A stretch of 60,948 bases of DNA from Chlamydiota bacterium (GTDB lineage Bacteria > Chlamydiota > Chlamydiia > Chlamydiales > SLFE01), in the NCBI GenBank assembly GCA_011065065.1, contig JAAKFL010000001.1, positions 1 through 60,948 on the forward strand, in the 5' to 3' direction. The stretch's first letter is position 1; each line of letters starts with the position of its first letter. Under the pieces are notes generated by a model. It was not told where the DNA came from and made no database searches. It was given only the letters and a program-made list of their open reading frames with translations. Position numbers and translations under genes: made by a program. This document shows positions 12-59,105 of the stretch, piece after piece.

Positions 12-44
12 TTCTCTCTGAGTTCTCTGCGACCTCTGTGGTGA
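12..44 (-). repeat. CACAGAG-type repeat module, reverse orientation
   Basis: ttctctctgagttctctgcgacctctgtggtga is the reverse complement of the caccacagagNcacagag module also seen at 3448, 13941, 37291 and 59080. Confidence 0.6.
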
Positions 45-193
45 TTTATATGCAAAAGTCTACGAGAAACCTATTTTCATGTAATTGATAATCAAAAAGA
101 TATGGTTCAGCGGGAACTTCTGTGCTTGGTGTAGCACAATCAATGATTGCGTGTATTGATAGCAGAAATTAACAATAGTAAGGAAGACATCTT

Positions 194-748
194 ATGTTAA
201 AAACCCTAATCACATTCATGCGTCACGGACATGCCATCGATGGAAAAGCTGATAAAATACGACCATTAAGCACTAAAGGCAGATTGCAGGTAAAACAATG
301 CGCGTTGCATTTAAAAACGCAGCCTCTTTTTGATCTCATTATTACCTCCTCGGCTGTAAGAGCAAAAGAAACTGCTCAAATTATTGTGGATGAAATAGAG
401 ACTCTTGCACCGGTCATTGAACGAGATGAACTTTATCAACCACCAAACTTAGATGATCAAGAGCTTGTTAATGAATTGTTAGAGAGATTAGGAGCGGTAC
501 CATTAAAAGTTTATAATAATCACGATGCTCAAGGTGCATGGGATAGATATTCTTCCTCTGCCTATAATGCTGTATGTGCAGAGATTGAGCGCCATTCCTC
601 TAAAAAAACATTAATAGTTGCTCACGGTAATATTATCAATGCCATTGGGTTGCGATTTTCTAAAAATGTTGAGGATTTGACTGAAATTTATTTCAATTAC
701 TGTGGAGGATTTGAAATTTACGAGGACAAATTTATACTCTTGCCATAA
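194..748 (+). CDS. histidine phosphatase superfamily protein (SixA/PGAM-like)
   Basis: 184-aa ORF with the N-terminal catalytic RHG motif (FMRHGHA) and a later AHGN motif. Confidence 0.7.
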   Translation: MLKTLITFMRHGHAIDGKADKIRPLSTKGRLQVKQCALHLKTQPLFDLIITSSAVRAKETAQIIVDEIETLAPVIERDELYQPPNLDDQELVNELLERLGAVPLKVYNNHDAQGAWDRYSSSAYNAVCAEIERHSSKKTLIVAHGNIINAIGLRFSKNVEDLTEIYFNYCGGFEIYEDKFILLP

Positions 749-820
749 AAATGGCATTTATCTCTTTGCTTAAGCTGCTTAAGAGGTTATGCAAGAGCTC
801 TATTGTATATTTTTTTCTGA

Positions 821-869
821 TGATCACCATGAATTAGTCCAATCTTCGCGCATCTTCGCGGTTTAATTT
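821..869 (-). repeat. CGCGAAGA-type repeat module with conserved flank, reverse orientation
   Basis: tgatcaccatgaattagtccaatcttcgcgcatcttcgcggtttaatt aligns by eye to the reverse complement of 19098-19165. Confidence 0.65.
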
Positions 870-972
870 CTACGATATCTTAAAAATTATTCGATAAATG
901 AGATAGGTTCATCTGCGCTGTGTCTAATATTTCTTGATAAAATTATCTAAATCTGTCATTATGGTCACTCAT

Positions 973-1046
973 GCACTGGTAGCTCAGCTGGATAGAGTAC
1001 GTGGCTACGGACCACGAGGTCAGGGGTTCGAATCCTCTCCAGTGCG
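973..1046 (+). tRNA. tRNA-Arg (anticodon ACG)
   Basis: Cloverleaf read by hand: acceptor GCACTGG/CCAGTGC, D arm GCTC..GAGT, anticodon stem CGTGG/CCACG with loop CTACGGA, T arm AGGGG-TTCGAAT-CCTCT. No encoded CCA. Confidence 0.9.
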
Positions 1047-1063
1047 AAACTTCAATAGAGTCT

Positions 1064-56098: not shown

Positions 56099-56696
56099 TG
56101 ATTAATCGAATCAATTCCTGCCTCCCAATATTCTTAGTTGCAGAATAAAAGGTCGGGACAATATTATCAGCACCAAATGATCGGAGTATTTTTTGACAAT
56201 TGGCTTTCCGTTCATTCTTGCTGACTTTATCCACTTTGGTCAACACCAGAATCATTGATTTTTCGTTATGGATAATCCATTCTAACAGCTGCCGGTCATC
56301 ATCATTGGGCATGCGCCTGATATCAAACAAAAATAGAATGACTTTCAAATGGTCCCGGTTCTCTAAGTATGATTGGATCATAGGCCCCCAAGACTTCCGA
56401 ATTTTTTCAGGGACTTTCGCAAATCCATATCCTGGGAGATCTGTAAAAGCAAGAGATCCGTCAAGGGTAAAAAAGTTTAGCGCCTGGGTTTTGCCCGGAG
56501 TCGATGAGGTGCGTGCCATTTTCCTATGGCGAAAGAGGTGGTTGATCAAAGTGGATTTTCCGACGTTTGACCGACCAGCAACGGCAACTTCAGACATGGG
56601 TCGTCCGTCTTCGCTAAAGAGTCGAGGGTAGTGTTCCGACTTTAAAACGGTCTTGACAAAGATTGGATCTCTAAACTCATATTTTTTCATGTCCAC
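56067..56696 (-). CDS. engB: ribosome biogenesis GTPase EngB (YihA)
   Basis: G1 GRSNVGKSTLIN, G3 DLPGYG, G4 TKVDK. Confidence 0.9.
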   Translation of the reverse strand: MDMKKYEFRDPIFVKTVLKSEHYPRLFSEDGRPMSEVAVAGRSNVGKSTLINHLFRHRKMARTSSTPGKTQALNFFTLDGSLAFTDLPGYGFAKVPEKIRKSWGPMIQSYLENRDHLKVILFLFDIRRMPNDDDRQLLEWIIHNEKSMILVLTKVDKVSKNERKANCQKILRSFGADNIVPTFYSATKNIGRQELIRLINEALQSEEEE

Positions 56697-57123
56697 ACTC
56701 TAATACCGTCACCAGACGACGGTTTTCTCCCAAATGCTCCAACTTGACCTTGATGTATGGCTTGGGGAGATAAGGCGCCATTCTCTCCGGCCACTCAATG
56801 CAGCAAGTGACGCCGCCTTCATCCAATAATTCGTCAAAACCCATCGCTAGAAACTCGTCTGGATCCTCCAAGCGATAGAGATCAAAATGATAGACGATGC
56901 GGTCTCCCTCGTAAATATTCAAATAGACAAATGTCGGGCTGTTGACCTGATCCTGCGGGTAATCCATCATCCCCGAAACAATCCCTTTGATCATCGTTGT
57001 CTTTCCCGATGCAAGATCTCCTTCAAAACACAAAATAGATCCTTCAGGTAACTGCTTCGCAAGATCTTGGCCGAATGACAGGGTTTCTTCAACTGAATTT
57101 AGTTCATAACTTTTCATGATCAT
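56677..57123 (-). CDS. tsaE: tRNA t6A biosynthesis ATPase TsaE
   Basis: P-loop GDLASGKTT, HFDLYRL and IEWPE motifs. Confidence 0.85.
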   Translation of the reverse strand: MIMKSYELNSVEETLSFGQDLAKQLPEGSILCFEGDLASGKTTMIKGIVSGMMDYPQDQVNSPTFVYLNIYEGDRIVYHFDLYRLEDPDEFLAMGFDELLDEGGVTCCIEWPERMAPYLPKPYIKVKLEHLGENRRLVTVLECGHEKI

Positions 57124-57153
57124 GATGGAGGGTGGGCGGAAGGAAAGAATGGT

Positions 57154-57885
57154 TTATTCCTCATCTTCTTCCAACCATTTTTCAATGTAAGGGACAAATT
57201 CCTCATACTCAGCTAACGCCTCAATAAAACCTGTAATTTTGCCTTCAGCAAGCTGATCTTGAAGAAACGCCAAAAATTTATCTTCTATTTGAAAACGGTT
57301 TTGATTTTGTACTTCCATAAGCGACATTTTCTTGATGTAGTGGCGCTTAAAATCATCAATCACTGCGTTTTTACTATTAAACAATTTCCCGTTCAATGCC
57401 GAGGTGTAGACCGTCTTGGAAATCGGTGCCTTTGCCGATTTCGTCTTCTCTGCATAGTCCTTGATCACATCCGGGTCCTCCGATACAAAAAACCGCTTGA
57501 CTCGTAACCCCCCAACACGCTCCGTATTCTCAGGACACTTCGAAACCCAATCATAGATCGCATCCTGCGGATTAGGATGGGTGTTATCCCCAAAAACCTT
57601 CCCTGTAAAAGGACAGATGTAAATCTTTTTTGTATTTTCATTCACATCTTCAAGACTGAAACGAATCTTGATCTCCGTCTCCTTCCAAAGCTTCCCATCT
57701 TCCTCCAGAGCCCCGACCAACTTGTCAATTCCACTGTAAATCGTCTTGTCCCGAGGAAATAACACAGGTTGAATGTTAAGTTTTTTTTCGATAAAACGAA
57801 GGTAGGTATTAATTAACTCCGGGTTACTGGTGTCAGTAAGGTATTTCAATACGGCCGTTTTTTGGTCCTTACTTATTTTCGTCAT
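57154..57885 (-). CDS. hypothetical protein
   Basis: 243-aa ORF with an acidic C-terminus; no motif recognised. Confidence 0.6.
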   Translation of the reverse strand: MTKISKDQKTAVLKYLTDTSNPELINTYLRFIEKKLNIQPVLFPRDKTIYSGIDKLVGALEEDGKLWKETEIKIRFSLEDVNENTKKIYICPFTGKVFGDNTHPNPQDAIYDWVSKCPENTERVGGLRVKRFFVSEDPDVIKDYAEKTKSAKAPISKTVYTSALNGKLFNSKNAVIDDFKRHYIKKMSLMEVQNQNRFQIEDKFLAFLQDQLAEGKITGFIEALAEYEEFVPYIEKWLEEDEE

Positions 57886-57990
57886 TGTGACCCCATGATG
57901 TCATTAGTTAAATAAAAAAATAACTTGTGTTGAACTAATTTTACAGGGGGAGAGGTTATAAAACAAGAGGATTTTAAAGAGGAGTCAGGA

Positions 57991-59079
57991 GTGTTGAAAA
58001 CAGATAAAATCAAAATTCAAGAGATCGATATCCCCAACTACGAAAAGGTCATCCACGCGGTCTATCCCACTGTGGGACTCAACTGTTTTATCGCCATCCA
58101 CAACACAACTCTTGGGCCTGCCCTTGGAGGAACCCGCATCTATCCCTACAAAAACGAAGAAAGTGCCCTCGAAGATGTCCTTCTACTCGCCAAGGCCATG
58201 ACTTATAAGTCTGCTTTGGCTGAGACTGGGTTGGGCGGAGGAAAAGCGGTGATCATCGCTAATCCAGAGACGCAAAAGACAAAGAATCTTCTGCTGGCCT
58301 ATGGGGAAGTGGTCAATTATCTGAAAGGAAGGTACATCGCCGCTGAAGATGTAGGATCGACCATCCACGATATGTTGATCGTCAATGAGCAAACGCCCTA
58401 TGTAGCCGCTCTTCCCACTGCTGAAAGTAGTGGCGATCCTTCCCGTTTCACGGCAAGGGGGGTCTACTGGGGGATCAAAGCAGCAGGGAAAACTTTGTGG
58501 GGTTCTGATTCCCTCAAGGATAAAAAAATCGCCATTCAAGGGCTTGGTTCCGTAGGATCAAAGTTAGCGCGACACCTTTTTTGGGAAGGAGCCATTTTGT
58601 ATGTGACCGACCTCGAACAGACTCAAATTCAAAATATTTGTAAGGAGTACAGCGCGGAAGGAGTTGGTCGCGATGAGATTATGCAAATAGAGTGCGATAT
58701 ATTTACTCCTTGTGCCCTCGGAGGAATTCTTAATGAGGAGACTATCCCTCATTTGGCTTGTAAGGGGGTGGCAGGGTCTGCAAACAACCAACTTCTCTAC
58801 AATCACAACGGAACCGATTTGATGGAGAGAGAGATCCTTTATGCTCCAGATTTTGTGATCAATGCCGGCGGCATCATCAATGCTGCTGCGGAATTCGACG
58901 AAGGAGGCTACAGCGCCAGAAAGGCGATGGATCAAACCAATAAAATTTATAATACTCTTCTTGCGATATTTGACATAGCCCACGAAGAGAGAAAACCGAC
59001 GGTCCAGGTCGCTTTTGAGTTAGCTGAATATAAATTAAAAAATAAAATTGGAAAGAGAGAGAAACCAATTACTTTTTAA
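57991..59079 (+). CDS. Leu/Phe/Val-type amino acid dehydrogenase (Glu/Leu/Phe/Val dehydrogenase family)
   Basis: Catalytic-Lys region GLGGGKAVI and the Rossmann motif IQGLGSVGSKLA. The 362-aa size fits leucine dehydrogenase. GTG start after AGGAG. Confidence 0.85.
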   Translation: MLKTDKIKIQEIDIPNYEKVIHAVYPTVGLNCFIAIHNTTLGPALGGTRIYPYKNEESALEDVLLLAKAMTYKSALAETGLGGGKAVIIANPETQKTKNLLLAYGEVVNYLKGRYIAAEDVGSTIHDMLIVNEQTPYVAALPTAESSGDPSRFTARGVYWGIKAAGKTLWGSDSLKDKKIAIQGLGSVGSKLARHLFWEGAILYVTDLEQTQIQNICKEYSAEGVGRDEIMQIECDIFTPCALGGILNEETIPHLACKGVAGSANNQLLYNHNGTDLMEREILYAPDFVINAGGIINAAAEFDEGGYSARKAMDQTNKIYNTLLAIFDIAHEERKPTVQVAFELAEYKLKNKIGKREKPITF

Positions 59080-59105
59080 TTCTCTGTGTCCTTCTGTGAA
59101 AAAAC
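59080..59105 (-). repeat. CACAGAG-type repeat module, reverse orientation
   Basis: ttctctgtgtccttctgtgaaaaaac lies directly after the stop codon. Confidence 0.6.

Follow-up and report, generated by a model that had tools for sequence, protein, structure and literature searches.

Intergenic tandem-unit arrays in a chlamydial contig, their relatives across bacterial phyla and their link to GxxExxY genes

Contig JAAKFL010000001.1 of a Chlamydiota bacterium carries, in the 60,948-nt stretch analysed here (the window), many intergenic arrays of short tandem units. We found that these arrays are non-random, that dispersed copies share sequence outside the units, that copies are present at some orthologous sites of related chlamydiae and missing at others, that the arrays belong to a family found across phyla, and that inverted pairs of such arrays bracket genes of the GxxExxY family in other bacteria. 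The reading that we favour, and consider rather probable, is that the window arrays are selfish miniatures without a gene, belonging to a class of palindromic tandem-unit elements that is pan-bacterial; we infer that GxxExxY is their likely partner. An earlier note on this DNA had described a modular repeat superfamily and proposed that it acts like repetitive extragenic palindromic (REP) sequences and bacterial interspersed mosaic elements (BIMEs), as terminators or mRNA 3′ stabilisers, or else as binding arrays. That interpretation is partly supported by our data, and the cross-phylum distribution and the GxxExxY link go beyond it.

Results

Census and anatomy of the arrays

Tandem Repeats Finder (TRF) detected 33 arrays with periods of 7-11 nt in the window, compared with 9.3 ± 2.9 (maximum 16) in 30 dinucleotide shuffles of the same DNA. 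Intergenic DNA makes up 10.3% of the window and holds 22 of the 33 arrays, which bears out the modular intergenic superfamily described earlier. Intergenic sequence, TRF and a repeat search showed that each coordinate listed in the earlier note carries the unit assigned to it; the GCAGAT-type copy at position 906 has its unit, but as a one-unit remnant only. Among the 11 arrays in coding DNA, the one at 53777-53808 is a member of the repeat family, and we take the other 10 to be background, the shuffles giving about nine. A strict regular expression for at least three consecutive CRCRRAK units matched eight times in the window and not at all in the shuffles.

Flavours A (CGCAAAG), B (CGCAGAT), C (CACAGAG) and D (CGCGAAG), with periods of 8, 10, 8 and 9 nt, respectively, are single substitutions apart and have the core CRCRRAK in common, so that on sequence grounds they are regarded as one family. 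Flavour E (ATCCTKNNN; ATCCTG) has the reverse polarity relative to A-D, is nearly restricted to this contig and is treated as a separate family; the five flavours recognised earlier are therefore four of one kind and one of another. In each arm a short T-rich head, with AAC, GAC or ACC at its end, precedes 3-5 degenerate units of 8-10 nt. Heads upstream of the arrays include TTTTAAC, TTTTAGAC, TTTTTACC, TTTAACC, TTTAGAC and TTTACC, none with GTAG. Paired copies read, on either strand, T-run and head, T-poor arm, loop, A-poor arm, inverted head and A-run, and this polarity is fixed. The anatomy that defines the class, a head with at least three CRCRRAK units and an inverted partner, T-poor arm first, is found in flavours A-D of the window and not in E.

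The copies take the form of 120-280-nt composites, nested hairpins and unstructured solo arms (Table 1). A composite of an A array, the palindrome TGGACCAACGGTCCA and a B array occurs three times with 81-90% identity (5697-5828, and as reverse complements at 7215-7336 and 53695-53817), two D loci have 22 nt outside the array in common, and two C copies have 49 nt in common at 86%. Stretches that copies have in common beyond the units measure 49-123 nt, at 81-90%. Nested composites are arranged as B+A+..A-B- (25177-25320), B+A+[E hairpin]A- (44562-44793) and A+..B+/B-..A- (53545-53825). The modules had been described as mixed and matched; they are indeed modular, but many are pieces of longer composites that are themselves repeated. 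Two metagenome contigs that are 100% identical to the window break inside repeats, at 3497, 3523, 5735 and 7302, and the window's own start falls inside an array; we attribute the breaks to the disruption of assemblies by high-copy repeats.

The family across phyla

The pattern TTAACGCAAAGAYGCAAA was scanned over one genome per GTDB species and matched at least 119 stretches, with about 35 expected by chance for the whole collection. The matches listed include Acidobacteriota (many of them Pyrinomonadaceae), Verrucomicrobiota, Chloroflexota, Planctomycetota, Bacteroidota and Gemmatimonadota, and further Burkholderiales, Desulfuromonadales, Poribacteria and a Parachlamydiaceae metagenome-assembled genome (MAG). 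The same head and units recur across phyla (TTAAC-GCAAAGAY-GCAAAG...). Among the 124 matches listed, 91 extend into another unit, which the pattern does not force, and 43 have the strict inverted terminus YTTYGCGTYDA within 400 nt; about half of the A heads in this set have a partner 60-250 nt away, and the 5′ flank is usually T-rich. Beside the A arrays of those genomes stand CACAGAG, CACAGAT, CGCGAAK and many more units of 7-10 nt. In two Verrucomicrobiales MAGs, whose orthologous loci are 93% identical, a hairpin nested in an A hairpin is kept in both, and an array of (CGCGCTCA)n has 5.5 copies in one and 4 in the other.

Other repeats were seen in the same genomes. Repeats with a 21-nt period (CTCTATCG.CAATAG...; L013 1900-2200 and L038) have diverged between the Verrucomicrobiales orthologues that are otherwise 93% identical, and classical GTAG-headed REP-like palindromes stand alongside tandem-unit hairpins in L003, L014, L081, L084 and others. 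Phages were considered as a vector for the arrays and rejected, the A pattern giving 5 matches in IMG/VR, which we judged to be near chance.

GxxExxY genes in the hairpin loop

In 840 kb around the listed matches, the sole recurrent non-housekeeping protein family was GxxExxY (TIGR04256, PF13366 PDDEXK_3), and no transposase family recurred near the arrays in that DNA. Five of the seven GxxExxY genes there are tightly bracketed by inverted arrays, four of A-type and one of C-type. Bracketing was then scored in 80 metagenome-contig loci chosen by protein motif only, with 72 genes having enough flank, a bracket being inverted tandem-unit arrays within 220 nt (blastn E<1e-3). By this measure 50 of the 72 GxxExxY genes are bracketed, 47 of these 50 in the canonical polarity, compared with 1 of 99 neighbouring open reading frames (ORFs) of at least 100 aa, itself an ORF read through arrays. 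The dominant cores of the bracketing arrays are GCAGAG (14), GCAAAG (13), ACAGAG (9), ACAAAG (5) and ACAGAT (3); the cassettes have heads ending ..AAC, ..CAC, ..GAC, CTC, ACC or GCC and a total size of 421-663 nt. When used as queries, the cassette arms gave 36 matches in the window, 35 of them on A and C arrays, and 0-1 in shuffled windows.

The GxxExxY family has been described as of unknown function, with many transfers between divisions in its phylogeny (PMC3424549). No relative was found by sequence in the PDB, and no literature linking such arrays to GxxExxY genes or to cross-phylum spread was found among open-access papers. Array flavour co-varied with GxxExxY similarity, a signal that was set aside as weak (55 versus 50% identity, permutation p 0.0005) and confounded with taxonomy. 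At one locus (L085 4130-4990) a 5′ GxxExxY fragment (..GPGLLGNDRI, then stop) has an A array immediately behind it, then a complete GxxExxY gene and the inverted A array. The view that this is a clean nested insertion was rejected: the truncated outer GxxExxY ORF has lost its 3′ part, and recombination is as likely.

A bolder reading of the bracket is that GxxExxY proteins, a large and widely transferred PD-(D/E)XK family, serve as dedicated nucleases for mobile hairpins of a new class, with the arms as recognition and cleavage sites and the gene-less hairpins either as non-autonomous offspring or as homing sites. We put this forward tentatively, as possible though doubtful.

Presence and absence in related chlamydiae

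The chlamydial relative L207 is syntenic with the window, with SdhB 86% identical and DNA about 75% identical. Its sdhB-thyX spacer is 117 nt long and does not contain the 146-nt composite of the window; at this empty site the conserved thyX leader and the TAAAAT just right of the element align. In turn, the Trp/Tyr-tRNA synthetase gene and uvrB, which abut in the window, are separated in L207 by a C-type hairpin of 170 nt (..TAGCACAGAGGACACAGAG...CTCTGTGCTA..), and 62 kb of the relatives L208-L210, including Parachlamydia sp. AcF125, contained no arrays; a count over 74 kb from four related chlamydiae gave 0 arrays. These patterns indicate that gains and losses of the elements take place on the time scale of chlamydial genera, and such patterns are the polymorphism for which the earlier note had proposed to compare related genomes. 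A 1.5-kb segment of the window (17983-19470), made up of two ORFs without Pfam match, a D hairpin and an E array, is window-specific and corresponds to 46 nt in L207 (1278-1323). The ankyrin gene and its flanking palindromes are also missing from L207. In L208 (10904-15277), the sdhB-thyX spacer holds rve and DDE_Tnp_1 transposase gene fragments together with other inserted genes. The sdhB-thyX intergenic site is a recurrent landing place.

Table 1. Array copies of flavours A-E in the window, with positions, strand and local context
Feature	Position	Strand	Remarks
C-type array, CTCTGNG units	7-42	-	contig start lies within the repeat
Solo D arm, (ATCTTCGCG)x2 with GTTTAAT head	821-868	-	terminator-like site 846-861; 22 nt of non-array sequence in common with D copy 19126-19163
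One-unit B remnant (CATCTGCG..GTCTAA)	906-926	-	
C-type hairpin, convergent genes	3436-3540	.	arms 3446-3482 and 3508-3532; -45.7 kcal/mol, z -9.6; matched by GxxExxY cassette arms; contigs L001 and L002 break here
Half composite from UDPGP stop codon	5706-5828	+	A 5706-5746, palindrome TGGACCAACGGTCCA 5761-5775, B 5782-5823
Near-full composite after F-box gene	7167-7337	-	short B+ arm, B- arm, palindrome 7268-7282, A- 7288-7330
Solo C arm	13939-13976	+	86% over 49 nt to 3446-3494; matched by cassette arms
E-type hairpin, ATCCTKNNN units, divergent promoter region	16470-16557	.	-57.1 kcal/mol, z -13.2
D-type inverted pair	19097-19354	.	47-nt arms, 98% complementary, 164-nt spacer
Solo E array	19435-19468	+	homology with relative L207 restarts 2 nt beyond
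Composite palindrome B+ A+ .. A- B-, directly past sdhB stop	25177-25320	.	-69.7 kcal/mol, z -9.8
Solo B array, directly past uvrB stop, upstream of F-box gene	35413-35450	+	unstructured
Solo C arm	37291-37328	-	encodes end (..LLCALLCVSL, then stop) of F-box ORF 36309-37322
Nested composite	44562-44793	.	arrays B+ and A+, then the E hairpin (44648-44748) and an A- head adjoining the topA stop
E hairpin within nested composite	44648-44748	.	-63.7 kcal/mol, z -14.6
281-nt composite palindrome A+ .. B+ / B- palindrome A-	53545-53825	.	-147.9 kcal/mol, z -19.4; left head is source of TauE stop codon; right arm encodes PdxT tail; 13 cassette-arm matches
Solo C arm from dehydrogenase stop codon	59080-59105	-	

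Folding, gene 3′ ends and termination

Folding energies of the paired elements lie between -45.7 and -147.9 kcal/mol (z between -9.6 and -19.4); a weaker fold is that of the small B hairpin 7185-7265 (-30.1 kcal/mol, z -5.3). The long hairpins expected earlier from inverted pairs are thus found, but about half of the copies are solo arms, which are without fold (13930, z -1.2; 35405, z +0.95). The location described before was confirmed, as most copies either coincide with a stop codon or lie no more than about 25 nt from one, or else stand between convergent genes. Those at 5706, 25175, 35410 and 59080 begin at a stop codon, and three overlap ORF ends: the stop codon of the TauE gene is supplied by an array head, the PdxT C-terminus (..LKNLTAKKQRHKDAKKEFA, then stop) is translated from an A array into which ORF 53763-54374(-) runs, and the last residues of the F-box ORF 36309-37322(+) are translated from a C array.

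Such positions, together with the strong folding of the paired copies, would suit host-selected bidirectional terminators or mRNA 3′ stabilisers, whose hairpins exist to end or protect transcripts. Two sub-modules fit the terminator pattern. One, the 15-nt palindrome TGGACCAACGGTCCA and then TGCGCTTTTT, is found at 5761+, 7282- and 53760-, and in all three places its orientation is the one that would end the gene next to the A array. The other lies in D arrays, which give terminator-like hairpins by TCGCGATCTTCGCGG followed by TTAAATTTTT; the A-poor 3′ arm is moreover U-rich as RNA. The whole elements resemble intrinsic (Rho-independent) terminators in being stable stem-loops downstream of genes. 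Unlike the G+C-rich stem and U-tract of such terminators, however, the main stems here measure 20-45 bp and lead into an A-run, with no U-tract downstream on either strand; the terminator form is limited to the 15-nt palindrome and the sub-hairpins of the D arrays. Because most copies are without U-tract, the arrays are not canonical terminators. Terminator-like sites are not enriched in the window either (20 versus 16.1 ± 4.1, 27 versus 18.7 ± 4.1, and 23 versus 21.2 ± 6.0), half of the copies are unstructured, some lie in divergent promoter regions (16470-16557), and elements are missing at orthologous sites of relatives. A terminator or stabiliser role would also leave the cross-phylum head and units and the GxxExxY genes in the loops unexplained. 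We therefore consider this explanation unlikely for the class as the earlier note had proposed it; termination holds for parts of some composites and not for the whole class.

Two other ideas about these elements were dropped. The F-box gene 6150-7178 was considered as cargo of a hairpin loop; two independent insertions at gene 3′ ends explain the layout equally well, because the upstream copy is a half element after UDPGP and the downstream copy a near-full element after the F-box gene. Readings of the arrays as CRISPR, riboswitches or small RNAs were unsupported.

Comparison with known systems

The closest analogy for the arrays is with REP sequences and their hairpin-forming doublets (REPINs) and the REP-associated tyrosine transposase (RAYT) of enterobacteria and Pseudomonas, and the analogy drawn earlier was apt. 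REP and REPIN copies are likewise short extragenic palindromes, often inverted doublets that form hairpins, which are clustered, nested and concentrated after genes, and the RAYT gene is itself flanked by two inverted REP copies (PMC3116915), a layout like the GxxExxY bracket. Unlike REPs, the arms here are made of tandem 8-10-nt units with no single GTAG-headed palindrome, and the window arrays do not show the 20-40-nt palindrome with 5′ GTAG that marks REP/BIME elements. The bracketed protein is GxxExxY, of the PD-(D/E)XK fold, and not a Y1 HUH transposase, and one repeat sequence is shared across phyla, whereas REPs are lineage-specific.

The arrays also resemble miniature inverted-repeat transposable elements (MITEs) such as Correia, RUP and Nezha in being non-coding, 100-300 nt long and dispersed, with terminal inverted repeats and shared internal sequence; insertions of both extend or end ORFs and differ in presence between relatives. 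Terminal inverted repeats, no coding capacity and multiple dispersed copies are all found here. An autonomous transposase parent with the same ends is not, the gene-bearing forms encoding GxxExxY, and the inverted repeats differ from those of MITEs in being built of tandem units of variable number. A search of literature full text for MITEs in chlamydiae gave nothing relevant. Cyanobacterial short tandemly repeated repetitive (STRR) heptamers and small dispersed repeats, which Mazel in 1990 and Elhai in 2008 are said to have described, are reportedly intergenic arrays of 7-nt tandem units in several flavours. STRR repeats are restricted to heterocystous cyanobacteria, and their unit length and sequence are unlike those of the arrays here; we know of no head motif, paired polarity or GxxExxY link in them. 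Taken together, the arrays form a variant of the REP/MITE kind; their breadth and their likely protein partner were not expected.

The earlier note did not recognise the units as a named family. At the gathering score Rfam gave tRNA-Arg as the sole match in the whole window and no repeat family, but the architecture has been listed once, in Geobacter metallireducens, as putative sites for integration host factor (IHF) or HU (PMC2700814). Those sites come in pairs on opposite strands and consist, site by site, of 3-5 tandem repeats of 7-9 nt; they are located intergenically including inside operons, with consensus GTTGCTYN (class 1), TCTCCGTS[Y] (class 2) and MTYCTGA (class 3), and were read in 2009 as IHF/HU sites; insertions of the IS110 (ISGme8) and IS481 (ISGme9) families stand at class 1 pairs, adjoining one or both sites (PMC2700814). 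The architecture, variable spacing included, is identical to ours, and class 2 has as its consensus the CRCRRAK core in reverse complement. The Geobacter description differs in concerning one genome, and no GxxExxY link, hairpin polarity or cross-phylum spread was drawn there. Short tandem units are typical of multimeric binding, and solo arms could still bind protein, so that binding arrays for a nucleoid-associated protein or global regulator are a further candidate explanation of the window copies. Against this, periods of 8, 9 and 10 nt, which differ by flavour, keep no single helical face, and the periodicity of roughly one helical turn claimed earlier did not survive. The copies lie at gene 3′ ends and not at promoters, and their distribution among close relatives is patchy. 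Binding would also fail to explain why non-array sequence is copied and, unless GxxExxY is itself the binder, why the GxxExxY bracket exists. We regard a binding role as improbable.

Two explanations fare worst. Independent products of local replication slippage at hairpins, arising de novo and convergently in each lineage without mobility, would account for unit numbers that vary between copies and between orthologues and for the long pure arrays at two loci (L050 and L095), but are highly improbable given a head and unit sequence far above chance in many phyla, non-array sequence shared by dispersed copies, and a fixed polarity. The last explanation is that the arrays are attC-like recombination sites marking gene cassettes for an integron-type tyrosine recombinase. 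attC sites have RYYYAAC...GTTRRRY core sites, a bulged stem and one-directional cassette arrays next to intI. The A-type ends TTTTAAC...GTTAAAA match this core at 6 of 7 positions at each end, small genes lie between arms and window-specific segments end at arrays, but the heads of the other flavours (GAC, ACC, CAC, CTC) do not match, the copies are scattered among core genes, facing either way, and do not form one-directional cassette arrays, the perfect tandem-unit stems are without the usual bulged design, and no intI or other integrase was found among the window ORFs scanned; we give this very little credence.

Gene content and other repeats of the window

The nearest named relatives of the window SdhB are those of Parachlamydia, Protochlamydia and Waddliaceae, at 71-75% identity. 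The genes include a TopA-SWIB fusion, DUF2709, MreC, three F-box, one ankyrin-repeat and two Sel1-repeat proteins, a content that fits an amoeba-associated chlamydia. A Pfam/NCBIfam scan of 53 window ORFs found no transposase, integrase, RAYT or GxxExxY, in agreement with the earlier statement that the window has no transposase. The F-box (6150-7178, 35483-36250 and 36309-37322), ankyrin (27213-28709) and two Sel1 genes (37391-39530) are of eukaryote-like effector types, and the ends of all three F-box genes carry arrays or other palindromes. The palindromic motif TCAGGCCTGAC flanks the F-box gene 36309-37322 on both sides (36258-36270 and 37372-37385) and may be another cassette boundary.

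Several further repeats lie outside the families described above. A short array (GTCATTTAC GTCGTTTTC GTCGTTTT) in a divergent intergenic region at 48572-48597 has a unit outside flavours A-E. A palindrome with 50-nt arms and a perfect centre overlaps the thyX 3′ end (27043-27142), and past the ankyrin gene lies a G+C-rich hairpin (CTTGGAGCCCCG..CGGGGCTCCAAG; 28710-28761), both unrelated to the tandem-unit families. Nested GATC-rich palindromes, with 34-nt arms that are 97% complementary, stand between rpoD and a helicase gene (11563-11731). Within ORF 28762-29589(-) there is an in-frame, near-perfect 9-nt repeat, (TTCTTCCGA)x4.7, at 28930-28971. Adjacent paralogues of about 380 aa without Pfam match (14009-15157 and 15169-16305; DNA 70-77% identical) form a tandem duplication.

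Discussion

In the class to which we assign the window arrays as miniature, gene-less members, two inverted arms form a hairpin of fixed polarity, with a loop that is short, holds another hairpin or, in the full-length form of other phyla, holds a GxxExxY gene. In this chlamydial genome the elements behave, on our reading, like selfish REP/MITE-type DNA: they are copied as composite units, nest into one another and gain or lose units by slippage, and they survive in places that tolerate an insertion, namely between convergent genes and at stop codons or a little beyond them. Movement may proceed through a protein that acts on the arms; GxxExxY is the candidate and, by analogy with RAYT and REP, could act in trans from elsewhere in the genome. 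Paired copies that are transcribed may serve, with their very long stems, as RNase III substrates or as barriers to 3′ exonucleases, and some sub-modules only would terminate transcription.

Several results weigh against this reading. No GxxExxY gene was found in the 61-kb window by tblastn and profile search in all six frames, nor does the window hold a transposase or other candidate enzyme. The B and D arrays of the window had no cassette-arm match at the threshold used, and the genes in which bracketing was scored encode relatives (44-68% identity) of five proteins that had themselves been picked up beside arrays. As 82 short hairpin loops contained no GxxExxY remnants, a derivation of the miniatures from cassettes is conjectural, and GxxExxY could be an invader of pre-existing hairpin loops rather than their engine. 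The DNA of the relatives is about 75% identical, so insertion boundaries are approximate. No target-site duplication is demonstrable at the copies, their palindromic T-run and A-run ends masking it: the ends TTTTA|...|TAAAA fit a TA or TTAA duplication or a longer inverted repeat, and the empty sites of L207 are diverged.

The arrays also have practical consequences: as repeats they break metagenome assemblies, and they create spurious ORFs and C-terminal extensions. In this symbiont they adjoin F-box effector-type genes that vary between relatives. If the link with GxxExxY is true, it would provide the first functional context for GxxExxY/PDDEXK_3, an 'unknown' family with many paralogues per genome, and would explain why intergenic repeats of one class, so far almost unremarked, turn up with the same sequence in at least 10 phyla.

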